From a virus (lineage: Duplodnaviria > Heunggongvirae > Uroviricota > Caudoviricetes > Thumleimavirales > Hafunaviridae): a stretch of 64,000 bases of DNA. Below, in pieces: positions 8,943 to 56,042 of the stretch. The stretch covers positions 12,760 to 76,759 of the IMG/VR virus record IMGVR_UViG_2974793816_000001. One strand, written 5' to 3'. The first letter of the stretch is position 1; every line of letters starts with the position of its first letter. Both the position numbers and the translations under genes were made by a program. The notes below the pieces were generated by a model that saw nothing but the letters and a program-made list of their open reading frames with translations, made no database searches and had not been told where the DNA came from.

Positions 8943-10174
8943 CGATTTCCCAAGACGGCTCTTTTGACGGCGACACCGAGGAGGAAATCCTCGATGCGAT
9001 GATTGCCGACGCGAAGCAGTATTGGTCGGATGACATTAAGGAATCCGAGCTTGCTGTAATCAGGCAGTTCTACCGGCCTATCGCTCGGCGTCTCGCACAG
9101 GCACAGGACGACATTGGACTTGTCCTCGAATCCACTCAGATTGATAACGCCGAAGGAACGGCCCTCGGTCTTCTCACGGCTCTAATCGGAGTGAAGCGAC
9201 AGCCTTCCGTCCGTGCTACGGGCGAGGTTACGTTCTCTCGGGAGAACATGGCTGAGCTTGATTACAACATCCCGGCGGGGACGAAGGTTCAGACGGCCTC
9301 GGAGCCGCCGACGCAGTTCGTCACTACGCAGGGCGCGACTATCGAGCAGGGGACTTCGAGCGCGACCGCCCCGATTATCGCGGTGGAACCCGGCGCTGAC
9401 GGGAACGTTGGCGCGAACGCGATTTCGGTTCTTCCGGTTCCGCTCGCGGGTATCGAGACGGCCACGAACGCGAACGAGACGGTCGGTGGCGAGAACGAGG
9501 AAACCGACGACCAGCTTCGCAAGCGAGCGAAGGAGGAGTTGGCCGAGGGTTCGAGCGCGACCGCTCCGGCGCTGGTGAGCGCGGTTCAGAACGTGGAGGG
9601 CGTCACGTCCGTCAGCATCCTCGTGAACGACACGAAGGACGACAACGGGCGAGGACACAACCTCCCGTCTAACTCCGGTGAGCTGGTCGTCACGGGCGGC
9701 GAGGACGCGGATGTGGCGCAGGCTATCCTCGAAACGAAGGGGATGGATTCGACTCTCGTGGCGGGAGTGAACGGTGTGGCTGTTGAGGGAATCCCTGCGA
9801 ATCTCCCGAACGGTCAGACGCTCCCGGTTGACTTCTCGCGGGCGAACCCCGTGACCATCTACATCGAGGCAGATGTTCAGGTCGATGCCAACTACGAGAG
9901 CGACGAGGACGTGCTGAACAACATCGTCGAGTACGTCGGCGGGCAGACCGTCGAAGGCTTCGAGCGCGACGGCGAGCTTGGCGTGACGGACGACGTTCTG
10001 TATGGCGAGGTCGAATACCGGATTCGGGAAATCCCCGGCGTGTACGACGTTACCTCCCTCAAGGTGGACAGGGTTAGTCCCCCGACCGGGACGAGCAACG
10101 TCTCGATTAGCGATATGGAGGAAGCGACGACTGACGCTCGGCAGGACATTACGATTACGACGAGCGAGGTGTAG
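8939..10174 (+). CDS. baseplate J-like protein
   Basis: 411 aa. Overlaps the upstream W-like gene by 4 nt, as in gpW-gpJ modules. Confidence 0.45.
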   Translation: MTISQDGSFDGDTEEEILDAMIADAKQYWSDDIKESELAVIRQFYRPIARRLAQAQDDIGLVLESTQIDNAEGTALGLLTALIGVKRQPSVRATGEVTFSRENMAELDYNIPAGTKVQTASEPPTQFVTTQGATIEQGTSSATAPIIAVEPGADGNVGANAISVLPVPLAGIETATNANETVGGENEETDDQLRKRAKEELAEGSSATAPALVSAVQNVEGVTSVSILVNDTKDDNGRGHNLPSNSGELVVTGGEDADVAQAILETKGMDSTLVAGVNGVAVEGIPANLPNGQTLPVDFSRANPVTIYIEADVQVDANYESDEDVLNNIVEYVGGQTVEGFERDGELGVTDDVLYGEVEYRIREIPGVYDVTSLKVDRVSPPTGTSNVSISDMEEATTDARQDITITTSEV

Positions 10175-21032: not shown

Positions 21033-21530
21033 TGGATACTTCGTGATTTGGAGGTCGGGACTATAAATTATGTCACAGAGACATACCGGAGTGAGAAATC
21101 ACCTCGATGCGTCTGTTCACGAAAAGATTTCTTCGTGAGAAACGTCGCCGTTGTGTTGACGCTCTTTCTCCCACTCGATTTCTCCTTCGACTTTCCCGAA
21201 GATTTCCGAGGCGATGGTGCGGTCTTCGTAGTCGCGGTCTGGATTGTCCTTGATTTGCTCCAACTCGTGTTCCAAAAACGCGAGGTGTTTTGGGGACAAT
21301 TGCATATAAAGAACCACACACCGGGGGGTTATAAAACGGGGGGTAGTGATTTGGACTTCATTTCCCATCACTCGGTTGTGGAAACGGGGTGGTACACGCA
21401 CGGCATACGGCCCTATACCCTCCTGTTTTTTATAAGTAGGATTGGTAGTAGAGTGTAGAGAAGCACGCAGAACGGGATGTTCCCGGCAAAGGTAGCCGCT
21501 TTCAGGGCCGAAGGCCTCCTCGGTAAAGCG

Positions 21531-21577
21531 CGTCCTTGGTAAGGACGAGACCGGGGGTTCAAATCCCCCCTCAGGCT
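21531..21577 (+). other. 3' fragment of tRNA-Thr(GGT) (anticodon arm + T arm + acceptor 3' strand); putative attP core
   Basis: CGTCC-TTGGTAA-GGACG anticodon arm, GGGGG-TTCAAAT-CCCCC T arm, CTCAGGC acceptor strand. No complementary 5' acceptor strand or D arm upstream. Adjacent to the integrase. Confidence 0.5.
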
Positions 21578-23519: not shown

Positions 23520-24884
23520 CTACTTCTTGAAGTTCATCACGGGCTTCAGCCGGTCAACGACCCCGGCAGTTGGGGTAATGTGTTCCTCGATAAGCTCCAT
23601 TGGCTTGTACGCTTCCGGCACTTCGTCGCCCGGAACCCGAGCAGAGTACGTCCCGTTGTCGTACATCCGCTTTCGAGTCTCGTCGGCGTCGAACTCCGAC
23701 CGCGCCCATCCACGGGAACCGAGTCGGCCCGCGCCGTGGGGAGCCGAGTAGTTGAACTCGGGGTTTCCGCGACCCTGACAAAGCAGGGTTCCGTCCTCCA
23801 TGTTCATCGGGATGGTGAACAGCTCACCGTCCTGAGCGCGGGTGGAACCTTTCCGAATCACCATGTCCTCGAAGTCCACGTAGTTGTGCGGAGAGTTGAT
23901 GAACTTGGTAATCGACGCATCGAGGGTTTCGGCCACCTCCTGAACCATCAGCAGGCGATTGAAGCTCGCGTAAGTCTGAGCGAGCATCATATCGTAGTAG
24001 TACCCGTAGGCTTCGCGGCCTTCGAGGTAATCGAGGTCGTTGTTCCGGTTCGAGTCCGGGGAGTACGACTCAATCTCGGAGCCGATACGCTCGATTTCCT
24101 CGCCCTCGTTGTAGAGGCGAATCTTCTCCCAATCGGGGGAGCCGTCGCGGTTCGTGTAGTGCTTCAACCGCTCGCTCATCTCGCCCCACTTCACGTCGGC
24201 GTCACGGTGTTCGGTCGCCTTCTCCTGCCAGTACGCCGCGACCTTCTGACCGAGGTTGCGGGAGCCGGAGTGAACGACTACCCACAGGTCGCCGGTCAGC
24301 TCGGACTCAGCCAACTCGATGAAGTGATTACCAGAGCCGAGCGTCCCGAGCGAGCGGAGCGCGTACCGTCTTCCAGCTCCAACTCGGGTACACATCTTCT
24401 TGAAGTAGTCCGGGTTGAACATCCCCTCGTCGCGGCTCTCGTAGTCGAAGTCCATCGCGTCGTAGAAGTGGAGTAGCTTCTCGTTGGCCTTCCACCACGG
24501 GAACGACCACTCCAAGTCCACCTGCGGTTCTTTGTGAACGCGACCCGTCCCCATCGGAATCCGGTCGCGCACCTCCTTGTTCACCTCACGGAAGTCGTCT
24601 ATGTCGGAGGGGTAGTCGCAATCCAACACATCGAGGCGGGCCGCCGTCATGCCGCACCCAATGTCTCCCCCGACCGTCTTCGGAATCACACGGTCAGTCA
24701 ACGGCATCGAGAAACCGACGATACACGCGGGGCCGAGTCCCCCGTGACAATCCGGCATGAACTTCACCGGGTTCTGGAACGCCTCGTGGTCAACCATCTC
24801 CTGTATCTCGTCTCGGAGTCCGTCTTCCACTTCTTCTTCTGGTAGGTGTACCTCTGCTGTCGTACTGTCTCCTTCTACAATCAT
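23520..24884 (-). CDS. rtcB: RNA-splicing ligase RtcB
   Basis: 454 aa with conserved RtcB segments (GGDIGCGMT, HSGSRNLGQ, NSPHNYVDFED, HGAGR). Confidence 0.85.
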   Translation of the reverse strand: MIVEGDSTTAEVHLPEEEVEDGLRDEIQEMVDHEAFQNPVKFMPDCHGGLGPACIVGFSMPLTDRVIPKTVGGDIGCGMTAARLDVLDCDYPSDIDDFREVNKEVRDRIPMGTGRVHKEPQVDLEWSFPWWKANEKLLHFYDAMDFDYESRDEGMFNPDYFKKMCTRVGAGRRYALRSLGTLGSGNHFIELAESELTGDLWVVVHSGSRNLGQKVAAYWQEKATEHRDADVKWGEMSERLKHYTNRDGSPDWEKIRLYNEGEEIERIGSEIESYSPDSNRNNDLDYLEGREAYGYYYDMMLAQTYASFNRLLMVQEVAETLDASITKFINSPHNYVDFEDMVIRKGSTRAQDGELFTIPMNMEDGTLLCQGRGNPEFNYSAPHGAGRLGSRGWARSEFDADETRKRMYDNGTYSARVPGDEVPEAYKPMELIEEHITPTAGVVDRLKPVMNFKK

Positions 24885-41562: not shown

Positions 41563-41635
41563 CGCCGAGGGGAGGACTCGAACCTCCGACCACCGTGTTA
41601 ACAGCACGGCGCTCTACCAACTGAGCTACCTCGGC
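41563..41635 (-). tRNA. tRNA-Asn (anticodon GTT)
   Basis: Full cloverleaf: GCCGAGG/CCTCGGC acceptor, GCTC/GAGC D stem, CCGTG-CTGTTAA-CACGG anticodon arm, GGAGG-TTCGAGT-CCTCC T arm. Confidence 0.85.
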
Positions 41636-41663
41636 AAGAGAAAGGGGGGATTGAGGTGCTTGT

Positions 41664-41717
41664 CCTCACTCTATTAGATGTGGGACTAAGACTTAAAGAT
41701 ACCTATATGAGTCTTAG
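41664..41717 (+). promoter_or_regulatory. family-1 repeat element
   Basis: CCTCACTCTATTAGATGTGGGACTAAGACTTAAAGATACCTATATGAGTCTTAGAG. Confidence 0.4.
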
Positions 41718-41799
41718 AGTTCATCGGGAGGGATGCCCCGCTCGATGAAGTTAGTAGCAAGTGGAGAACCACAACCGGGAGAGATAGAAGTAGCAGACA

Positions 41800-42012
41800 T
41801 TACTTGTCGAAGCGGTTGACCCACGTAGAGAGATTCTTGATAGAGAGGCCATCCGCCCGAACGTCGTCAGCGAGAGAAGTGAGAGAATCCAGCAGAGTAG
41901 AATCGTTCCACGAGACGGGGTATTCGAGAGAGATGATGTCCACCTCGTCGCCGTTGCCGAAGGGTTCGAGAGTCGCTTCGAGGTCGCCGGAGGTCTGAGT
42001 GTAGGCAGTCAT
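41800..42012 (-). CDS. hypothetical small protein
   Basis: 70-aa acidic ORF. Its ATG overlaps the stop of an upstream 43-aa micro-ORF at 42010-42141. Confidence 0.3.
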   Translation of the reverse strand: MTAYTQTSGDLEATLEPFGNGDEVDIISLEYPVSWNDSTLLDSLTSLADDVRADGLSIKNLSTWVNRFDK

Positions 42013-42140
42013 GCTGGAGTGTTGATGGGGTTCACGACGTGGTTCGGCTCCGCAGTAGGAGCGAGCGGGACTTCCGGGCCGATTGGTTCGTTGAAGGAGA
42101 CAGCGCCGACGCCACCCGAGGGGGTATCGTCGTCGTCCAT

Positions 42141-42551
42141 CTACTCCTCCGCGAGCTGGTCGAAGTTCGGGACGACCGTGCCGTTCACTCGGTTGCCGGG
42201 AACGCTCATCCCCGAAAGCTCGAACACGTCGGCCGCCTTCTCGATACCGAACGCATCGAGCAGGTCGAAGAACTCGGCACTCGCGTCCTCGATACCATCA
42301 GGGAGGTCGAACTCCAAGTCAGCGGGGTTCGGGCCGTTCTCCGTGTACGTCGGGATGACCACGTAGAGGTCTTCGGTCAGCTCACCCCGGTCGATGAGTC
42401 TCGGCTCACCAAGCTGAATCTGAACCTCGAACCCGGAGTCCGTGCGCTCCGTGATTGCGTTGAAGACCGCCTCGGCCCCACCGAGGTCGAGGTAGTCACG
42501 TTCGTCGTCGTTACTTCGCCGGAACAGTAGGTTTCGGATGAATCCAAACAT
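42141..42551 (-). CDS. hypothetical protein
   Basis: The ORF-track start at 42737 overlaps the tRNA-like element. Internal Met MFGFIRN near 42551 is the plausible start. Confidence 0.35.
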   Translation of the reverse strand: MFGFIRNLLFRRSNDDERDYLDLGGAEAVFNAITERTDSGFEVQIQLGEPRLIDRGELTEDLYVVIPTYTENGPNPADLEFDLPDGIEDASAEFFDLLDAFGIEKAADVFELSGMSVPGNRVNGTVVPNFDQLAEE

Positions 42552-42633
42552 TGTTTCTCTCTGGTTTCCAGCGGATAACCGCCGCTGGCACGGCTTAGGT
42601 AGCGTAGTACCGAATCCCCTATGACGGAGGGGA

Positions 42634-42705
42634 AGCAACCGGCGGGAATCGAACCCGCAGAGCGTGGCTTTCGCTTCGCCCCCATTGCCAGTAGGTGTCG
42701 GTTGC
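42634..42705 (-). ncRNA. tRNA-like element with non-canonical anticodon region (possible pseudo-tRNA)
   Basis: Perfect 7-bp acceptor stem GCAACCG/CGGTTGC, T arm GCGGG-TTCGATT-CCCGC and D stem CCTA/TGGG. The anticodon arm is replaced by an extended stem capped with a GAAA tetraloop, so no 7-nt anticodon loop exists. Confidence 0.4.
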
Positions 42706-42781
42706 GAGTCGCGGATTGCCGCACCCCCGCCCATCAAGGGGCAGGGTCATACGGCCCCCACCGGAGCGACTATCCGGCTCA

Positions 42782-42852
42782 TGCGACCGGAGGGAATCGA
42801 ACCCCCGTTGGCGGCTTGGAAGGCCGCCGTGATACCACTACACTACGGTCGC
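42782..42852 (-). tRNA. tRNA-Gly (anticodon TCC)
   Basis: GCGACCG/CGGTCGC acceptor, GCGGC-CTTCCAA-GCCGC anticodon arm, TTCGATT T loop. Confidence 0.85.
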
Positions 42853-42870
42853 AAAAAGGAGAACGAGCCT

Positions 42871-43005
42871 ACTACTCGTTCTTCATCTCGTACATCGTCT
42901 CCTCGTGTTCCAACTCGGCCTTCTTTCGGAAGTATCCGAACGCGGCCACCGTGATAACCGTCACGAGGAAAAGCCACAGAATAATCAAGAAGACGACTTT
43001 GAACA
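42871..43005 (-). CDS. 44-aa membrane micro-protein downstream of the SPFH gene (NfeD-like partner?)
   Basis: Not in the ORF track. MFKVVFLIILWLFLVTVITVAAFGYFRKKAELEHEETMYEMKNE. Start lies 1 nt after the SPFH stop. Confidence 0.3.
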
Positions 43006-43007
43006 TC

Positions 43008-43880
43008 CTACTCGTCCTCGTCCGTATCCTTCACGAGAGTCGGAGTTTCGTCGGAGGGAAGGTAGATGGTCTTACCGTCAGAGTTCTTGATTGCCTCGAT
43101 GTAGCGAATCTGAATCAGCTCGGGGTTGTTGCGAACAGACTCCGCGACAATCTCGTTCGCCTTGGCTTCACCCTGAGCGCGTTCAATCTGAGCGCGAGCT
43201 TCCTGCTTCGCCACTTCGACCTCTGCCTCAGCCTTCAGTTCACGCTGTTGCGCGACCTCCTTCTCCGTGATGGAACGCTCGTAGGACTCGGGGAAGTTGA
43301 CCTTCGTAATCTGGACGGAATCCAGAATCAGGCCGGTGTTCGAGAACTTCTCCTCCAGTCTCTCTCGCGCGTCCATCGTAATCTGAGTCTGACCGGCGGA
43401 GGTGTAGACCTCGCTCGTCGCCATGCTACCCGTCGTAATGAGCATCTGCTTCGAGAGGGTCGTCCGAATCATCCGCTGTTCGGCGTTCTCCAGAGTCTTG
43501 TAGTCCGTGTAGAAGTCAGTCACCTGCTCCGGGTCGTTCGGGAGCTGGTAGCGAACGGTCACGTCGAAGGTCGTCTCAACACCGTCAGCGGTTTTCACCA
43601 CGATGGGGTCAGCAAAGTCCTTCGCCCCCTCTCCGGGGTTCGAGGTCATGGTGTACGCCTGCTGTCGGGTGGAGAGCGTCACCGTATCGTGTTTGACCGG
43701 CGTAATCCAGTTCGCACCGGGCTGAAGAACCTCACCAGTTGCGTCACCCCACTCGGTGACAACCGCCACGTTTCCTTCGTCAACAGGCTCCCAAGCCATC
43801 GCACCAACCGCTCCGGTGGTGAGAATGAGGAAAGCCATACCGACTGCGATAGCCTTCAGTTTGAATGTAGTTAGTTCCAT
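43008..43880 (-). CDS. SPFH/band-7 (prohibitin/HflC-like) membrane protein
   Basis: N-terminal transmembrane helix, SPFH core and C-terminal coiled-coil (ELKAEAEVEVAKQEARAQIERAQGEAKANEIVAESV). The ORF-track start at 44345 would run through tRNA-Arg; the MELTTFKL start is near 43880. Confidence 0.75.
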   Translation of the reverse strand: MELTTFKLKAIAVGMAFLILTTGAVGAMAWEPVDEGNVAVVTEWGDATGEVLQPGANWITPVKHDTVTLSTRQQAYTMTSNPGEGAKDFADPIVVKTADGVETTFDVTVRYQLPNDPEQVTDFYTDYKTLENAEQRMIRTTLSKQMLITTGSMATSEVYTSAGQTQITMDARERLEEKFSNTGLILDSVQITKVNFPESYERSITEKEVAQQRELKAEAEVEVAKQEARAQIERAQGEAKANEIVAESVRNNPELIQIRYIEAIKNSDGKTIYLPSDETPTLVKDTDEDE

Positions 43881-43924
43881 TTCGTAGATTTCTCTCTGGT
43901 CTGTTTGAAAGCCGATACACCGCA

Positions 43925-43999
43925 CGGAGACGATGGGATTTGAACCCACGCGCTTTCGGTTAGAAGCCGAACGCTCTGTCCGAGCTGAGCTACGTCCCC
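43925..43999 (-). tRNA. tRNA-Arg (anticodon TCT)
   Basis: GGGGACG/CGTCTCC acceptor (one G-U pair), GCTC/GAGC D stem, TTCGG-CTTCTAA-CCGAA anticodon arm, GTGGG-TTCAAAT-CCCAT T arm. Confidence 0.85.
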
Positions 44000-49757: not shown

Positions 49758-50024
49758 CTACCACCACCCCTCGAAGCCCATCACTTGACGGGCGAGTTGG
49801 TCGATAGAATCACGTCCGTTCAGGAACAGGACGTTCGACACCATCTGCTTGATAGCATCGAGTCGGGGAAACACCGCTTCCCGAACTTCCATCCACTCCT
49901 TCACGACTCCCCGGAGGGAGCGGGTCTTGTCGTAGAACGCCGCCACCAACTCGGCAGAGAACTGCCGGGCGAGGTTCCACGCTTCGAGCTGTTCGAGGTA
50001 GCGTCCGTGTAGTCCATTATCCAT
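49758..50024 (-). CDS. hypothetical protein
   Basis: 88-aa ORF. Confidence 0.3.
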   Translation of the reverse strand: MDNGLHGRYLEQLEAWNLARQFSAELVAAFYDKTRSLRGVVKEWMEVREAVFPRLDAIKQMVSNVLFLNGRDSIDQLARQVMGFEGWW

Positions 50025-50423
50025 TTAAGCCGTCACCTCAGGGGCGTGAGCCGGTCGGGTCGAATTGATGCGCCGAACACCGAACACTTCCATCAGGATT
50101 GCCTGATTGTTGTAGTCGGCTCGGGAGTACGCTTTGTAGAGGTCGCCGTCCCACAGCGCCGCGAAGAAGTGACCGCCGTAGTGGTCGAAGTCCTCGGCGT
50201 TACCCTCGTCCAGATTCTCCCACTCCCGAAGGTACTTCTTGACCTCCGTGAGAGCCGAGTTTCGGCTAACCTCCTTGCCGTCTCCGCGTTCGTTCTCCAT
50301 CGTGGTAATGTCGAACTGACACACCTCGATGAGTCGTTCATCAGCTCCGGCCCACCGGAGCAGGGTTCGTTCTTGGTCGGTCAGGTCGGGCGTCGGGTCG
50401 CTGAATTTTGTTAGGTCGTCCAT
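50025..50423 (-). CDS. hypothetical protein
   Basis: 132-aa acidic ORF. Confidence 0.35.
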   Translation of the reverse strand: MDDLTKFSDPTPDLTDQERTLLRWAGADERLIEVCQFDITTMENERGDGKEVSRNSALTEVKKYLREWENLDEGNAEDFDHYGGHFFAALWDGDLYKAYSRADYNNQAILMEVFGVRRINSTRPAHAPEVTA

Positions 50424-50472
50424 TGGTTGTGTTCCTCTAAGACTCGGAGTGGTATCTATAAGTCTTTACCGA

Positions 50473-50823
50473 TTATCGAACGAAGACCTCGTAGGAGTGA
50501 ACGCGGCTGTCATCGAATCCCATGTAGGGAATCGAGAACTCCCACGTTCGGCCCGCTCCGAGGTTATTGATGTTGTCGAACCCGCTCTCCAACTGAGTTC
50601 CACGAGAATCGTAGAACACGCCTTCAACTTGGGCGTAGGAGAGTCGCCGGTTCGAGGTGTTCTTCGCGGTTCCTACAATCTCTAACCCACCAAACATCCC
50701 ACTCGATGCTCGGTGGCTTGTGATTTCGAGGCTACTGCCACCACCAACACATCCAGCGGTGGCGACCACCCCTCCGATTGTAGCTACTGTGCTTGCTGTT
50801 TTCAGAAATTCACGTCGCTTCAT
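50473..50823 (-). CDS. Tat-signal lipoprotein
   Basis: MKRREFLKTASTVATIGGVVATAGCVGG: twin-arginine motif plus lipobox. Confidence 0.45.
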   Translation of the reverse strand: MKRREFLKTASTVATIGGVVATAGCVGGGSSLEITSHRASSGMFGGLEIVGTAKNTSNRRLSYAQVEGVFYDSRGTQLESGFDNINNLGAGRTWEFSIPYMGFDDSRVHSYEVFVR

Positions 50824-50833
50824 AATTGCTGGT

Positions 50834-50893
50834 CAGCTCATCAAAGGCCGGGGCGACCACCCCCCGACGACACCGAAAACAGGTGTTTCGCCG
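50834..50893 (-). ncRNA. hammerhead-like structured RNA element, copy 2 (5' leader of the lipoprotein gene)
   Basis: Minus strand reads CGGC-GAA-ACACC(UGUUUUC)GGUGU-C-GUCGGGG(GGUGGUCG)CCCCGGC-CUUUGAUGA-GCUG. It begins at the stop codon of the upstream gene. Confidence 0.4.
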
Positions 50894-51136
50894 TTATACG
50901 TTCTCAGGAAGCTCGGTGACTCCAGCGGGGCCACCAATCTCGAACTGTTCTCCACATTCTCCGCACTCCACGACGGTTAGAACCCACACCCCACCGACTC
51001 CACCTCGAACCCGAGTAGGGCTTGCTCCACCGCGCCGCCCGGCAACCTCGATTTTTGACTCCCCAAGCTCCTCGTCACACGAGGGACACGATACATCACC
51101 GTTCACGTCGTCAGCGGTTTGGACTGTTTTACTCAT
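50894..51136 (-). CDS. zinc-ribbon protein
   Basis: CPSCDEE...CGECGEQF. Confidence 0.35.
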   Translation of the reverse strand: MSKTVQTADDVNGDVSCPSCDEELGESKIEVAGRRGGASPTRVRGGVGGVWVLTVVECGECGEQFEIGGPAGVTELPENV

Positions 51137-51407
51137 CTTCAGGTTCCTCGAACGTAATCCTCAGCTCGTCGTCGGTTGCTTCAACCCACAAGAACTTCTT
51201 ATCCTCGACGGGTTCGAGCGCCATCGAGTGTTCGAGATAGTTGAGTTTCATCCCGCCGATTCGGATTCGGGACTTGTCCGTTTCGTAGGTCGTTGAGTCC
51301 TCCATGTAGGCTCCGACCACTCGGACTTTTCCAGATTCCTGTTTCAGAATCTCAACCATCTCAAAAGTAGCTGTTCCAGTTATCGTACCGATTGCGTCGT
51401 CGCCCAT
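51129..51407 (-). CDS. hypothetical protein
   Basis: ORF upstream-adjacent to the helicase gene. Start set at an internal Met. Confidence 0.3.
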   Translation of the reverse strand: MGDDAIGTITGTATFEMVEILKQESGKVRVVGAYMEDSTTYETDKSRIRIGGMKLNYLEHSMALEPVEDKKFLWVEATDDELRITFEEPEDE

Positions 51408-51430
51408 GAATCTCCAGTTGTTATGGCTAC

Positions 51431-53236
51431 CTATGAAGGTTGCCGCCACGGGGCGGCTTCCGGGTCGCTCCAATGTTCCGGGGGTTCATCCCGAATCGCC
51501 TCGGTGAACCACTCCGGCGGCTTCGTCCTGTTCATCAGCTTGTTGAACGCCCCGTCGATGATGTAATATGACGCGGCTTCACTCGGCTCCGGGCCACGGA
51601 CAGCTCGCCCCACGGACTGCTGAACATCCAGAGAAGCCGACTCCATGTACCAGTCCCAGTCGTTCCGCTCATCGAGCAGGTAGGACACCCGGTTGTCACC
51701 GAGGTAGGGGTAGGGAACCTTCAAGAGAACCTGCCACCGGCAACGGTCGCCGTGGAGGTCTACGCCCTCCATCATCGACGGAGAGATTAGAATGTCCTTC
51801 TCGCTGTTCACCCACTCCTCAATCATCTCCTCCTTGTCCTTGTCTTGGTCTTGGACGATGACGTTCTTCCGACCGAGGGAGTCAGCGAGCTTTTCGGCCC
51901 GCTTGTAGGAGTTGGTGTGAATCAGGCCGTTCTCCCCCTTGTGGTGAGAGTGAATCTCGCGGATTGTGTTAATGACCTTCCGCCAGTTCTGTTCTTCACC
52001 TTCGCCGCTCATCGAGCCGACGATGGTGTTCTTGTGAATCAGCCGGTGTTCCTCGGGGAACGGCATCGGTCGGCTGATAAGCTTCGTGGAGCCTTCGAGT
52101 CCGATTCGCTCGGCCCACTCAGCGATGTTCTCCCTGTACGGAATCGTCGCGGAGGAAATGACCCTCTTGTTTCCACGGCTCCAAATGAACCGTTCGAGGA
52201 ACTTGTCCACGTCCACCGGACTAATCACCATCTTCTTCTGACCCAACTTGCCGAACTTGCTCACCGTCACCGTCCACGGCCTTCCGTCCTTCACCTCCCG
52301 GTGACAGTATTCGACCTTCTTGATGAAGTCCTTACATTGGTCAACCTCGGCGGTCTTGTTCGGGTCTTCATCGTGGCGGTCAACGAAGTTCGTCGCTCGG
52401 TCGTAGAGGCTGTTGAGGATGTGGGTAATGTCCTCGAAGCGTTCGTAATCCCACGAGATTTTGTCGTCCGTGTTCCGGTAGACCTTGTTCGGGAGAGTCC
52501 ACGGAGAGATTGTGAACCCGGCGAACAGCGAAGCCACTTGGCTTTCGAGGCCGTGACCCTCATCAACAATCACGAGGTCGCGGTTGTCGAACGAAATCTG
52601 TTCCTCCTGAACGTCGTTCACCAGAATCGTCGTCGGCAGGTAGTTGTCCACGACGAGCATAGCGAACGTGAGAGCCGCTATGTCGGCGTCCATCGCTCGG
52701 GCCTTCGACCGCCAGTAGGTACACCCGGCAATAGTTCGGCAGGACTGATTCTCCATCTCGTCGGGGAGAGAGCAGTCCTTACAGTTGTCGCCGCTTGCTC
52801 CGCAGATGTAGTCCTGCCGGGACTTCAGCATCGTGACGTATTCCTGAAGGTCAACGTCGTTGGCGAGCTGATTACGGAGTTGTTTCTGTGGGGTAGTGTA
52901 GAAGGACTTGCCCGACTCGATGCCGTAGAGCTTGTAGTTGAAATGGTCTTCAATCCGACTCTTGTTCTTCTTCAAGTGGGAAATCACCCGACCGAGAGTG
53001 ACGTTGATGGGAGACTTCCCAATCCCGGTGGGGCCGTCGATTACGACGTTCGTGTGCCCCTCGATGAACAGGGCTTCGAGAGCGCCCTTCAGAATCTCAT
53101 CTTGGTAGTCACGGTATCCGGGGAACGGAAATAGGTCGTCAGCGAGGTGAAACAGGTACTCTCGAAGCCCATCTCGATTCCTCGAATAGTTAGCTAACGG
53201 TTCAACTCTCGGGACGCTTTGGCTTACTGAGGACAT
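51431..53236 (-). CDS. XPD/Rad3-family (DinG-like) Fe-S DNA helicase
   Basis: Walker A GPTGIGKS and a DEGH box (VIVDEGHGLE). A four-Cys cluster lies between them (CGASGDNCKDC...C...C). Confidence 0.65.
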   Translation of the reverse strand: MSSVSQSVPRVEPLANYSRNRDGLREYLFHLADDLFPFPGYRDYQDEILKGALEALFIEGHTNVVIDGPTGIGKSPINVTLGRVISHLKKNKSRIEDHFNYKLYGIESGKSFYTTPQKQLRNQLANDVDLQEYVTMLKSRQDYICGASGDNCKDCSLPDEMENQSCRTIAGCTYWRSKARAMDADIAALTFAMLVVDNYLPTTILVNDVQEEQISFDNRDLVIVDEGHGLESQVASLFAGFTISPWTLPNKVYRNTDDKISWDYERFEDITHILNSLYDRATNFVDRHDEDPNKTAEVDQCKDFIKKVEYCHREVKDGRPWTVTVSKFGKLGQKKMVISPVDVDKFLERFIWSRGNKRVISSATIPYRENIAEWAERIGLEGSTKLISRPMPFPEEHRLIHKNTIVGSMSGEGEEQNWRKVINTIREIHSHHKGENGLIHTNSYKRAEKLADSLGRKNVIVQDQDKDKEEMIEEWVNSEKDILISPSMMEGVDLHGDRCRWQVLLKVPYPYLGDNRVSYLLDERNDWDWYMESASLDVQQSVGRAVRGPEPSEAASYYIIDGAFNKLMNRTKPPEWFTEAIRDEPPEHWSDPEAAPWRQPS

Positions 53237-53250
53237 TTTTCAGAAGTATC

Positions 53251-53313
53251 TGGTCGGCTCGTCAACAGCCGGGACGACCAACTCCCGACGACACCCACGG
53301 TGGGTGTTTCGCC
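53251..53313 (-). ncRNA. hammerhead-like structured RNA element, copy 1 (5' leader of the helicase gene)
   Basis: CGGC-GAA-ACACCCAC(CG)GUGGGUGU-C-GUCGGGA(GUUGGUCG)UCCCGGC-UGUUGACGA-GCCG. Covariation against copy 2 in stems I and II. Confidence 0.4.
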
Positions 53314-53488
53314 GTTATTCTTGCCAGTACCGCCGCTCTATGTTGATTATCTCCGATACATCACGCCGGGGCTTCGACTTGCCACGACGCCGCCAGCAAG
53401 CCTTCCTTCGAAGGGAGTAGAAATACTCGTAGTCGGCTTGCTCGATTTTCTCTATGTCTTCTTCCATACTACCGGGGTGACACCGCAG

Positions 53489-53932
53489 TTATTCGTCGGC
53501 CTGTTCAAACCAGAACTTCACTCCGACTCCCTTTCCGGTGAGGGTGGAGAATGAGAACTTGAATCCGAACTCCTCCATCGTCTTCCGCTCGCTGTTCATC
53601 ACGAGGTGGGAACATGGGTCGCCACTACTGTCCACGTAGGGATGGAACGGAATCAGGAGCATCTGAACGTCTCCCTCGTTCCCGATTCGGATGTGACTCA
53701 GCTCACGGAACCGCTCGGGAAGCTCGTCGAGGATTCGTTCTTCGAGGTCGTCGTAGTCCACGTCCTCGGTCGTCGGTTCGTCGGTGCTGTCGCTACCTGC
53801 CGGAAGTGCTTTGGTACTCATTTGAGGATTACTCGCTGGTTTCTCGCTCTCGCTCTCGCCGGGCGCAGATGTTGCTGAGGAACAGCTTGAGCGAATACTC
53901 GGGAATCGGTCGGTCGGCGTTCTCCACGGCAA
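53489..53932 (-). CDS. hypothetical protein
   Basis: 147-aa acidic ORF. Confidence 0.3.
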   Translation of the reverse strand: MPWRTPTDRFPSIRSSCSSATSAPGESESEKPASNPQMSTKALPAGSDSTDEPTTEDVDYDDLEERILDELPERFRELSHIRIGNEGDVQMLLIPFHPYVDSSGDPCSHLVMNSERKTMEEFGFKFSFSTLTGKGVGVKFWFEQADE

Positions 53933-54482
53933 CCCGTGGGCTGATTACCTCGAACGGCACACCGTCCGGGTCGTACATCCGCCACTCTCCCTGTCCGAGA
54001 GCTTCGAGGGTGTACGTCACCGGCTCCTTCGATGACAGGCTGATGTGGTAGTCGTACTCGTACCGGACTCCCTCGGAGTGAAGCGGCCCTTCGAGCAGTT
54101 GTATCGCTTCACCCAAGTCCTCTCGGGTTTCCTCGATGAAGCGAAGCTTCGTGATGATGTCGTTGTAGAGTCCAGCGTAGGCGAGCTGTTGAACAGCCTC
54201 CTGCTGGTCTTCCGGGTCGTCGTAGAACCGTTCACCTCCCTCGTTGTAGAACCCTTCATCGGCGTGATAAATCACGCACCGCTGGTAATACTGGATGAGG
54301 TCGTGGTTCTGAACGGCGGCCTCAGCGACCGCCCACAGCGGGATTTCCTCCGGTAACTCGTTCGGACAGTAGGCCGGGGTTCGTATCTCCTCGGCCCCCT
54401 CCAGAGCGTAGTCGTAGTATCGCTTTGCCGTTGCCTGTACCTCTCGGATGTAACTCTCGAACGTGTCGTACTTGTTAGTCAT
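53829..54482 (-). CDS. hypothetical protein
   Basis: 217-aa ORF. Confidence 0.35.
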   Translation of the reverse strand: MTNKYDTFESYIREVQATAKRYYDYALEGAEEIRTPAYCPNELPEEIPLWAVAEAAVQNHDLIQYYQRCVIYHADEGFYNEGGERFYDDPEDQQEAVQQLAYAGLYNDIITKLRFIEETREDLGEAIQLLEGPLHSEGVRYEYDYHISLSSKEPVTYTLEALGQGEWRMYDPDGVPFEVISPRVAVENADRPIPEYSLKLFLSNICARRERERETSE

Positions 54483-54489
54483 AGTCTGA

Positions 54490-54939
54490 TTACCGCCGGA
54501 GTCCCTTCATCGACGGGCAACCTGCCTCGATGTAGCTGAACAGAGCGCAGGTGTAGAAGTCCTGCTTGAACCTCCACGGAGTGTGGGGGTGGTTCACCAT
54601 CGCTTCCATCTCGTAGAACAGAGTCGGAGTGATTGTGGTCTGGATGTTGTTGTCGCTCGTTCTGTTGGCGACCTCCAGAATCTCCGCCACGTCACGAGTC
54701 TCCCCGGTCGCATCGAGGTAGAACAGAAGTGCGTCGTTCACGAACTGACTGACGCTCCGCCACTTCGCGCTCCGAATCGCCGTCTCCGTCACGAAGCTCT
54801 TGACCTTATCGTTGACGTAGACCTTCGCCGCCTTCGTCCGGTTTTCCGTGGTCGTCTTGAACTTGTAGGTGACTGCTTCGCTCGGAGTGTGGTCGTCGTA
54901 CAGTTCGTCGTTAACGTCGATGGTGGTATCGGCAGACAT
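54490..54939 (-). CDS. hypothetical protein
   Basis: Start set at internal Met MSADTTIDV, about 35 nt downstream of hammerhead-like copy 3. Confidence 0.35.
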   Translation of the reverse strand: MSADTTIDVNDELYDDHTPSEAVTYKFKTTTENRTKAAKVYVNDKVKSFVTETAIRSAKWRSVSQFVNDALLFYLDATGETRDVAEILEVANRTSDNNIQTTITPTLFYEMEAMVNHPHTPWRFKQDFYTCALFSYIEAGCPSMKGLRR

Positions 54940-54974
54940 AGTTCTAACTCGTTTGCTCCTCCGCCTTTCCGTGG

Positions 54975-55037
54975 CTGGCATCATCAGGACAGTAGCGCCA
55001 CCTACTGCCGACACTCCCCGAGGGAGTGTTTCGCCAA
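54975..55037 (-). ncRNA. hammerhead-like structured RNA element, copy 3 (canonical CUGAUGA box)
   Basis: UUGGC-GAA-ACACUCCC(UCGG)GGGAGUGU-C-GGCAGUAG(GUGGCG)CUACUGUC-CUGAUGA-U-GCCAG. Preceded by a TAATTTAAATATC TATA box. Confidence 0.45.
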
Positions 55038-55190
55038 AATTGATATTTAAATTATATGTGGGAAACTTCTGCTCCGATAACCGCCGCCCAAATTAGAACC
55101 CAAATCAGAAAGACCGCGAACAGACTCACACCGACACCGCACAACAGGCCCCGCCACCGCCTCGTCGCTTGAAGAACTCTCGAAGGAGGT

Positions 55191-56042
55191 CTACCACAGC
55201 TCGACCCCCGGAGTATCCACGTACAGCGGGCCGATTAGCTCCGTCACTTCGCTGAAGTTCTCCGGCTCCACGATGAAGCCCCGCCACGCCAAGCTGAACT
55301 TCCCGAGGTCACGTTCCTTCAGCTCCTCGTCAATCACCCGGCAGATGTGACCGTTGTAGAGCCGGGGAATCACGAAGAACCCCTGAGGGAACTGTTCTAT
55401 CTGGAAGGTCGTCGGCTTCTCCTTCACGAGTGAACCCCACAGGTGGGTCTTCTCCGGGTCGCTTCCGTGCTGAGACTTCCACATCTGAGTCACGAGGCTC
55501 CGGTAGCGTTCGTGGGTGTGGAGAGCTTCGACGTTCCTCGGCTCTTTCAACACATCGAGCGTGTCTATCTCATCGAGGTGGTGCTTGAGGTCGTCCACCA
55601 CGAGGGCCTTTGCGATGTTCTCGTTCAGCTCCTTCATCACGCCGTAGAGGGTATCCGACGCCCATCCATCCTCCACGGTCTGCTCGATTGTCTCCGGGTC
55701 AAGAACGAACCGGCGGTTGTAGGAGAACACCTTACCACCGACCGATTCGTAATACTGCTCGATGCGTCCGAACTCCGTCTCCCACACCTTCGGGTCGTCG
55801 TTGGCGGCCTCGAAGTCAGGACGTTCCTCGAAAATCGTCTTGCTCTTTCCGTTGAAGATTTCCCGAATCCAGAAGTCGTCGTAGAGAGGCTTCGGGTCGT
55901 CCGGGTCGGTGAGCTGACCGGCCTTCCACACCGGATGAACCGGGTCGTCGGGCTTCAGGGTCGTCGTTCCGATGTGTTTGTTCTTCTTAAGTTCGACCAG
56001 CGATTCTCCAGCCGTCGTCTCGATAGCAGTTGGAACGCTCAT
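55191..56042 (-). CDS. hypothetical protein (283 aa)
   Basis: Acidic ORF. Confidence 0.35.
   Translation of the reverse strand: MSVPTAIETTAGESLVELKKNKHIGTTTLKPDDPVHPVWKAGQLTDPDDPKPLYDDFWIREIFNGKSKTIFEERPDFEAANDDPKVWETEFGRIEQYYESVGGKVFSYNRRFVLDPETIEQTVEDGWASDTLYGVMKELNENIAKALVVDDLKHHLDEIDTLDVLKEPRNVEALHTHERYRSLVTQMWKSQHGSDPEKTHLWGSLVKEKPTTFQIEQFPQGFFVIPRLYNGHICRVIDEELKERDLGKFSLAWRGFIVEPENFSEVTELIGPLYVDTPGVELW

Follow-up and report, generated by a model that had tools for sequence, protein, structure and literature searches.

Three type II hammerhead ribozymes, one with a consensus core and two with variant cores, among the early minus-strand genes of the haloarchaeal virus HRTV-10

The stretch of DNA analyzed here (the window; 64,000 nucleotides [nt] of IMG/VR record IMGVR_UViG_2974793816_000001) covers the right-hand 64 kb of the genome of Halorubrum tailed virus 10 (HRTV-10; Hafunaviridae, Haloferacalesvirus; 76,759 bp). 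Window positions 50000-56000 match MZ334496.1 / NC_062758.1 at 100% (megablast), and a window position equals the record position minus 12759. Three related RNA elements lie on its minus strand, copy 1 (HH1; 50829-50893), copy 2 (HH2; 53250-53314), and copy 3 (HH3; 54971-55036), among the small early genes that surround the Rad3/XPD-type helicase gp99 on that strand. By structure and family, as read from the sequence, the three are genuine type II hammerheads, and we think it likely that they act within a long minus-strand early transcript, cutting the early polycistron into sub-operon mRNAs. The evidence comes from membership in sequence and structure, fold, strand, covariation, conservation, and position. 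The hammerhead class, its occurrence in this genus, the odd core, and the presumed role are already published; what is added here is two unannotated paralogues, the presence of canonical and variant cores in one genome, and an association with module junctions.

A search of the whole window (cmscan) with the Rfam 15 Hammerhead_II model (RF02276; curated gathering score, 37 bits) returned, at gathering thresholds, four tRNA matches and two hammerheads, namely HH3 (54.0 bits at 54969-55036; E = 2.5e-8 on 64 kb) and HH1 (42.3 bits at 50828-50893; E = 2.9e-5 on 64 kb). HH2 scored 34.6 bits (53249-53314) and appeared only at an E-value threshold (E = 2e-4 on 4.7 kb and 3e-3 on 64 kb). Its orthologues in HF2, HRTV-8, VOLN27B, and HJTV-1 score 41.1 to 45.4 bits, above the gathering score, and the lower value in HRTV-10 is due to a shorter and weaker stem III, not to a different kind of element. 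The HH1 orthologues of VOLN27B and HJTV-1 score 52.7 and 37.3 bits, respectively, and the HH3 orthologue of HRTV-8/14 scores 51.2 bits. HH1 and HH2 are paralogues (81% identity across 69 nt). The original prediction, made from the letters alone, had placed three minus-strand copies within 1 to 6 nt of these coordinates, had read them as type II hammerheads cleaved after the GUC, and had named the Rfam type II model as a check; with two copies above the threshold, the third just below it, and orthologues of all three above it, that reading is upheld. The copies have the type II permutation of RF02276: three helices surround the core, stems I and III end in loops, and stem II is open. A loose motif (GGCGAAAC..GTC..TGG..TGAYGA) matches three times in 64 kb, with 0.00 matches expected and none in 100 dinucleotide shuffles. 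Rfam gave no other ribozyme family in the window, E-value threshold included, and a covariance model built from halovirus instances gave no fourth copy in the window or in the other 13 kb of the HRTV-10 genome.

The three copies share one layout: YGGC-GAAA, a stem III closed by an A-U pair, GUC, a stem I hairpin with a GGUGGYCG-type loop, UGAYGA, and a strand that re-pairs with YGGC. As RNA, HH1 (50893->50829) reads CGGC GAA ACACC-UGUUUUC-GGUGU C / GUCGGGG-GGUGGUCG-CCCCGGC / CUU UGAUGA GCUG ACCAG. HH2 (53314->53250) is built in the same way, but its stem III is ACACCCA/UGGGUGU, its linker is UGU, its box is UGACGA, and its stem II strand is GCCG; HH3 (55036->54971) reads UGGC GAA ACACUCCC-UCG-GGGAGUGU C / GGCAGUAG-GUGGCG-CUACUGUC / C UGAUGA U GCCA GCCAC. 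The architecture from YGGC-GAAA to the strand pairing back had been described correctly, but the extent assigned to the elements left out a 3' tail (ACCAG; GCCAC in HH3) that forms a pseudoknot with loop I. HH1 begins (50893) directly after the TAA of gp97 (50896-50894) and ends 5 nt before the ATG of gp96 (50823); HH2 begins (53314) directly after the TAA of gp100 (53317-53315) and ends 13 nt (53249-53237) before the helicase ATG (53236), a spacing identical to that published for HF1/HF2. The exact start of both copies at the upstream stop codon, noticed in the original reading of this window, recurs in every virus and environmental contig examined: each begins at the next base.

Covariation was assessed in 19 instances (16 distinct) from 11 viruses. 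A first MAFFT alignment of the three copies misplaced HH3; 17-sequence and covariance-model alignments were used instead, and the stem II and tail columns of HH3 were re-registered by script to offset its extra U. Standard pairs fill 97.3% of the cells of stems I and III in the distinct sequences, against 83.8% in column shuffles and 37 to 51% when partners are slid by one to three columns, and double-sided changes occur at 9 of the 14 stem I/III pairs, including all seven of stem I; since the instances are orthologues and paralogues, independent compensatory events are far fewer than the cells counted. Stem II pairs in 16/16 after the register correction (variants C-G/U-A/U.G and G-C/G.U). 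Stem I of HH3 differs wholly between lineages (GGCAGUAG/CUACUGUC in HRTV-10 versus ACUACCCG/CGGGUAGU in HRTV-8/14) and still pairs around an unchanged core. Loop I pairs with the 3' tail in the tertiary pseudoknot that is a hallmark of type II hammerheads (PMC3088659), as UGGU(C)/(G)ACCA in HH1 and HH2 and as GUGGC/GCCAC in HH3; the four central pairs of this contact form in all 16 distinct sequences, one of them switching from U-A to C-G. RNAalifold recovers stems I and III independently, and stem II is missing from its consensus because the extra U of HH3 shifts the register by one column. The compensatory changes first proposed for the stems from the three copies are thus supported in stems I, II, and III, and the pseudoknot, which that proposal did not include, shows covariation as well. 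G.U pairs are frequent (12/16 at one position of stem I) and would turn into A.C mismatches if the other strand were read; therefore, the functional molecule is the minus-strand, coding-sense RNA.

The catalytic core is invariant in 19/19 aligned instances at G12 A13 A14, the A15.1-U16.1 pair, C17, and U4 G5 A6 N7 G8 A9. As originally noted, HH3 has CUGAUGA followed by one extra U, and HH1 and HH2 deviate at C3: a C directly between stem I (N2.1) and U4 is found in HH3 only, its place being taken by CUU in HH1 and UGU in HH2. The lack of a lone C3 in these two departs from the RF02276 consensus core and matches published variation in halovirus and saltern sequences (PMC3088659), so that it is compatible with membership in the family as currently defined. 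Across relatives and environmental contigs, linkers of the HH1 type are CUU, CUA, or CCU and those of the HH2 type UGU, UAU, UG, or UA, so that C occurs as the first base only in the former and nowhere in the latter. All loci fetched, most of them from bacterial phages, were surveyed by script and gave 228 type II hammerhead-like elements, 207 of them with a lone C; the nonconsensus linkers of 2 to 3 nt all came from halovirus-type DNA except for one CC case, in agreement with the published restriction of such variants to sequences from salterns (PMC3088659). The same genome keeps a canonical HH3, and the variant core is therefore not forced by hypersalinity as such. After A9, HH1 and HH2 continue directly with G10.1-C11.1, whereas HH3 and its HRTV-8/14 orthologues have one extra U between. 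An extra residue at this point is reportedly tolerated in some viroid hammerheads (de la Pena and Flores 2001); a literature search for support of this found none.

Cleavage in HRTV-10, and its consequences for expression, would follow by analogy with published work on relatives. We propose that all three elements are transcribed within one or more long minus-strand early transcripts of HRTV-10 and fold into a three-way junction with stem II open and stems I and III capped by loops, locked by the 4- to 5-bp pseudoknot between loop I and the 3' tail. Each would then cut itself 3' of C17 (Table 1), leaving an upstream RNA whose last structure is the stem III hairpin, terminated by a 2',3'-cyclic phosphate, and a downstream RNA that starts with a 5'-OH on the stem I hairpin. 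The start codon would lie 70 nt from the new 5'-OH end for gp103 (ATG 54939), 53 nt for the helicase, and 45 nt for gp96. The resulting segments (...gp104 / gp103-gp100 / helicase-gp98-gp97 / gp96...) could be uncoupled in stability and translation, and where all three sites were cut, a 1,720-nt gp103-gp100 RNA and a 2,421-nt helicase-gp98-gp97 RNA would be released. HH3, with its consensus core, is expected to cleave fast and constitutively; HH1 and HH2, with their halovirus-specific linker of 2 to 3 nt, probably need the very high Mg2+ and K+ inside haloarchaeal cells and may be slower or conditional. Several published observations are consistent with this scheme. In HF2, very long primary transcripts are seen by reverse transcription-PCR (RT-PCR) versus Northern species of 0.5 to 9 kb, and the authors invoke processing (PMC8707807). 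Primer extension in HF2 (Tang et al. 2002) puts the 5' end of the major helicase transcript at most 3 nt from the predicted cleavage site (PMC3088659). Prophage genes or blocks of genes are often flanked by several hammerheads, whose cleavage to gene-length RNAs has been shown both in vitro and in vivo (PMC3088659), and such clusters are interpreted as trimming long phage transcripts to operon- or gene-length mRNAs (PMC3088659). The splitting of polycistronic transcripts suggested for this window is also the published interpretation for phage hammerhead clusters (PMC3088659).

Table 1. Window coordinates of the three hammerheads, their parts, and the surrounding features
Feature	Position	Strand	Remark
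HH1 (copy 1), type II, variant core	50828-50893	-	paralogue of copy 2
HH1 stem II	50893-50890 with 50837-50834	-	
HH1 C17	50869	-	predicted scissile bond 50869/50868
HH1 linker CUU	50846-50844	-	
HH1 UGAUGA	50843-50838	-	
HH1 tail ACCAG	50833-50829	-	
HH2 (copy 2), type II, variant core	53249-53314	-	HHphage orthologue
HH2 stem II	53314-53311 with 53258-53255	-	
HH2 C17	53290	-	predicted scissile bond 53290/53289
HH2 linker UGU	53267-53265	-	no C3
HH2 UGACGA	53264-53259	-	
HH2 tail ACCAG	53254-53250	-	
HH3 (copy 3), type II, canonical core	54969-55036	-	
HH3 stem II	55036-55033 with 54979-54976	-	
HH3 GAA	55032-55030	-	
HH3 stem III	55029-55011	-	
HH3 C17	55010	-	predicted scissile bond 55010/55009
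HH3 stem I	55009-54988	-	
HH3 C3	54987	-	
HH3 UGAUGA	54986-54981	-	
HH3 extra U	54980	-	
HH3 pseudoknot tail GCCAC	54975-54971	-	pairs with loop I GUGGC
AT-rich TATA-like box	55044-55057	-	8-21 nt upstream of HH3
gp103	54490-54939	-	first gene 3' of HH3; no Pfam family
gp100	53315-53467	-	50-aa protein; TAA abuts first base of HH2
gp99, Rad3/XPD-type DNA helicase	51431-53236	-	first gene 3' of HH2
gp98	51129-51407	-	in gp99-gp98-gp97 module bracketed by HH2 and HH1
gp97	50894-51136	-	in gp99-gp98-gp97 module bracketed by HH2 and HH1
gp96, predicted secreted/lipoprotein-like, 116 aa	50473-50823	-	first gene 3' of HH1
gp42, RtcB RNA ligase	23520-24884	-	encoded in window

Several points weigh against processing by all three copies. 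Of the two published insertion variants, HHmeta from a saltern and HHphage, the HF1/HF2 orthologue of HH2, only HHmeta was assayed in vitro (PMC3088659). The HHmeta insertion precedes an intact C3, unlike HH2, in which the C3-G8 pair would be U.G or absent, a change that is crippling in consensus hammerheads; HH2 of HRTV-10 also falls under the Rfam gathering score. The 5' end mapped in HF2 could be a true transcription start, and RT-PCR products across the region in HF2 show cleavage to be incomplete at best. Finally, RNAfold favors an alternative hairpin in HH1 and HH2 (50838-50869 and 53259-53290, minus strand), in which CGUCGG at the cleavage site pairs with UUGAYG and which is better by 1.8 to 3.8 kcal/mol than the pseudoknot-free hammerhead fold. 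The minimum-free-energy fold of HH3 (RNAfold) is the hammerhead itself, with no competitor of this kind.

This difference between copies bears on a second explanation, plausible but unlikely in our judgment, in which HH1 and HH2 are conditional ribozymes whose linker ties cleavage to Mg2+ or salt, thereby sensing the ionic state of the host, while HH3 is constitutive. Release of the helicase module and of gp96 would then be set by host ions, as has been proposed for HHmeta/HHphage (PMC3088659), where constitutive processing and salt-responsive control were both put forward as speculation. HHmeta is nearly inactive at 15 mM Mg2+ and cleaves at about 0.13 per min at 300 mM, its activity climbing steeply with Mg2+ (PMC3088659). 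The confinement of 2- to 3-nt linkers to halovirus-type loci, when 207/228 type II hammerheads have a lone C, and the canonical copy in the same genome, which shows that hypersalinity alone does not impose the variant core, both lend weight to a sensor, as does the alternative fold that competes with the active one. Against this, haloarchaeal cytoplasmic Mg2+ may always suffice for cleavage. The competing fold is also not the same in the orthologues, since the minimum-energy folds differ for HRTV-8 copy 2 and VOLN27B copy 1, and covariation cannot test it because its segments do not vary; for these two reasons, we did not adopt the alternative hairpin as a conserved switch.

It is improbable that copies 1 and 2 are catalytically dead derivatives, serving as mRNA-stabilizing or protein-binding elements at leaders or 3' ends or as DNA homology patches of about 65 bp for module exchange. 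HH2 is without C3 and below the Rfam gathering score, and the elements lie exactly at indel and module junctions. Yet across 19 instances the catalytic core apart from C3 does not change, and the stems have diverged through compensated changes, which is the pattern of a ribozyme and not of a generic hairpin or recombination patch. The HF2 transcript 5' end at the predicted site (PMC3088659) and the activity of the related insertion variant HHmeta at high Mg2+ (PMC3088659) likewise argue for catalysis.

The ends that hammerheads would leave (2',3'-cyclic phosphate and 5'-OH) are exact substrates of RtcB, an RNA ligase that HRTV-10 encodes as gp42 and that is conserved in the HF1 group (PMC7230728). 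The excised HH3-HH2 (1.72 kb) and HH2-HH1 (2.42 kb) segments would bear both ends, and in animals RtcB is reported to circularize hammerhead-flanked RNAs (PMC7229834). A cut-and-rejoin scheme, in which the hammerheads and the viral ligase yield circular, spliced, or rearranged early RNAs from these two segments, has chemical appeal but is very unlikely. Most Haloferacalesviruses have RtcB and a single hammerhead, and RtcB therefore cannot depend on paired ribozymes. The virus also has several tRNA genes (41563-43999), which makes tRNA repair, the stated role of the gene region (PMC8707807), the more obvious function. No spliced or circular RNA came to light when Perreault et al. looked for such products with clustered hammerheads of bacteria (PMC3088659). 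The narrower idea that in the three-ribozyme lineage RtcB rejoins the pieces, with Mg2+-dependent variant cores setting the timing and circular RNAs arising in an archaeon, earns equally little credence. A resemblance that arose by chance or from the composition of a GC-rich repeat has in its favor only that the folding z-scores of single sequences are modest (-0.1 to -2.3), and it is already refuted by Rfam E-values of 2.5e-8 and 2.9e-5 on 64 kb, by the shuffles without a motif match, and by covariation and conservation in 41 genomes.

The original prediction had placed HH3 just downstream of a TATA box, which holds only in part. An AT-rich TATA-like box is indeed present in the 154-nt spacer 5' of HH3, but it is specific to the HRTV-10 clade and absent from the HRTV-8 and HRTV-14 orthologues. 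HF2 promoters have their TATA at about -26 to -19 relative to the start (PMC8707807); with that spacing, transcription from this box would start within the ribozyme, at about 55025-55031. With unfavorable spacing and no conservation, we judge it unlikely to be the promoter of the HH3-containing transcript, so that read-through RNA from gp104 is the more probable substrate of HH3. On its other side, the 24 nt 3' of HH3 (GGAAAGGCGGAGGAGCAAAC, with GGAGG; 54947-54970 on the minus strand, equivalent to 9081-9104 of locus L004) are identical in the HRTV-10 and HRTV-8 lineages, and the segment GGAAAGGCGGAGGAGCAAAC may be a conserved translation-initiation or protein-binding site for gp103. The HH3 core is also kept identical in the HRTV-8 lineage, where stem I and the upstream spacer have diverged.

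Gene content fails to explain ribozymes at these junctions, because Pfam gave nothing above its own cutoff on the eight flanking proteins; the sole family listed was a zinc ribbon on gp97 (20.2 bits versus a cutoff of 27.9). The gp96 gene is found only where HH1 exists (HRTV-10 clade and VOLN27B), and HJTV-1 has HH1 without gp96. Several gene calls overlie the ribozymes in GenBank records (window 54940-54981; L006 7001-7078; L007 4001-4093; L011 4001-4078). The GenBank start of gp103 (54981) is an AUG within CUGAUGAUG of the HH3 core, and its orthologues start 42 nt later, at the equivalent of 54939; the tiny coding sequences HJTV-1_gp98, HRTV5_97, and HCTV-7_gp92 coincide with HH2. Elsewhere in the window, a weak tRNA match on the plus strand (21507-21577; 34.8 bits), annotated as tRNA-Thr GGT, adjoins the integrase gene and, by analogy with HF2 (PMC8707807), is probably an attP tRNA-like element and not a working tRNA.

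All 41 Haloferacalesvirus records in the phage collection contain HH2, and GenBank marks it as a predicted hammerhead in the records of HF1, HF2, Hardycor2, Serpecor1, and Hardygib1. The two other copies are more restricted. HH1 occurs only in the HRTV-10 clade (HRTV-10, -18, -19, -20, -22, -23, -26), Hardygib1, HJTV-1, and VOLN27B, and HH3 only in the HRTV-10 clade and Hardygib1 and, at about 80% identity, in HRTV-8, -14, and -17. Both are unannotated in every GenBank record examined, including that of Hardygib1, which marks HH2 yet omits them. The original prediction's belief that hammerheads had not been described in haloarchaeal viruses was mistaken, as HHphage of HF1/HF2 was published in 2011 (PMC3088659) and is annotated in the five records named above; "the hammerhead ribozyme" is also listed among the conserved noncoding features of the HF1 group (PMC7230728), the supplement of which has no text on the hammerhead figure. 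In full-text literature searches, no mention of a second hammerhead in any of these viruses was found. A metagenome scan added five halovirus-type instances (L139, L140, L141, L143, and L145), and a scan of species-representative genomes gave only bacteria, with no haloarchaeal provirus, among the 50 loci listed. An exact-word scan of IMG/VR with the conserved 3' part of HH3 returned HRTV-8 and one further locus (L133), rejected as a chance word match without a hammerhead.

Gene orders mapped by tblastn place the ribozymes at the edges of variable gene blocks. The order is gp100-HH2-helicase-gp95 in HF2, gp100-HH2-helicase-HH1-gp96-gp95 in VOLN27B, gp100-HH2-helicase-gp98-gp97'-HH1-gp95 in HJTV-1, and gp104-HH3-gp103 ... 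HH2-helicase-gp95 in HRTV-8, and HRTV-10 carries all three hammerheads. In environmental contigs that lack the helicase (L135, L140, and L145), the order is gp100-HH-gp95, and the single hammerhead between gp100 and gp95 is of the copy 1 type. Thus, the ribozymes occupy junctions of gene modules gained or lost in this mosaic genus. The paralogous HH1 and HH2 bracket the helicase cassette (50829-53314; compared with L003, L005, L006, L135, L140, and L145), and the helicase-less relatives with one copy suggest gain or loss of modules at the ribozyme sequences. This coincidence of ribozymes and module boundaries, the helicase cassette included, may explain how the ribozymes spread. HRTV-10 and its close relatives, with one consensus and two insertion-variant cores in one early operon, also offer a natural comparison that could tell whether the odd core is adaptive, regulatory, or defective, a question that dates from 2011. 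For annotation, two further archaeal-virus hammerheads are gained, and the spurious small coding sequences or wrong start codon that overlie ribozymes in several records can be recognized. The practical gains are modest, and the established view that long transcripts of tailed viruses are processed by hammerheads is unchanged.

The closest known system is HHphage of HF1/HF2, described together with HHmeta by Perreault et al. (2011, PLoS Comput Biol; PMC3088659) as a type II hammerhead that has an unusual insertion beside C3 and lies 13 nt 5' of the helicase start codon. HH2 is its orthologue, with the same neighbors, the same UGU linker, the same 13-nt spacing, and 88.5% identity over 84 nt. 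It differs in that stem III in HRTV-10 is one base pair shorter and has one G-C replaced by A-U, which brings the Rfam score down to 34.6; HF1 and HF2, for their part, are without the two further hammerheads. HHmeta, the sole relative with kinetics, resembles HH1 and HH2 in its extra nucleotides between stem I and the CUGAUGA box (a G2a-C2b insertion) and in its hypersaline saltern source. Unlike them, it keeps C3 directly before U4, whereas the C of HH1 is only the first linker base and HH2 has none, and its kinetics are not simply transferable to HH1 and HH2 because of this difference in C3 arrangement.

Among bacterial viruses, the prophage clusters of Agrobacterium tumefaciens, Azorhizobium caulinodans, and Clostridium scindens are similar in lying on one strand between genes or short gene blocks (PMC3088659). 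Their cores are of the consensus kind, and types I to III are mixed in them, in contrast to HRTV-10, a virus of an archaeon with variant cores in two of its three copies. The present analysis also found the right arm of R4/phiELB20/Paedore-type Streptomyces phages to be packed with type II hammerheads (also L024, L047, L056, L064, and L085). Phage Paedore (L080, NC_054671.1 40885-52743) has 12 Rfam matches above the gathering score in 11.9 kb on one strand, and no ribozyme is among the feature names listed under the matches in records of this type. These arrays share with HRTV-10 the RF02276 family, a pseudoknot between loop I and the tail (UGG/CCA), and a setting on one strand of an arm of small early genes, but they are much denser, have consensus C3 linkers, and belong to phages of bacterial hosts.

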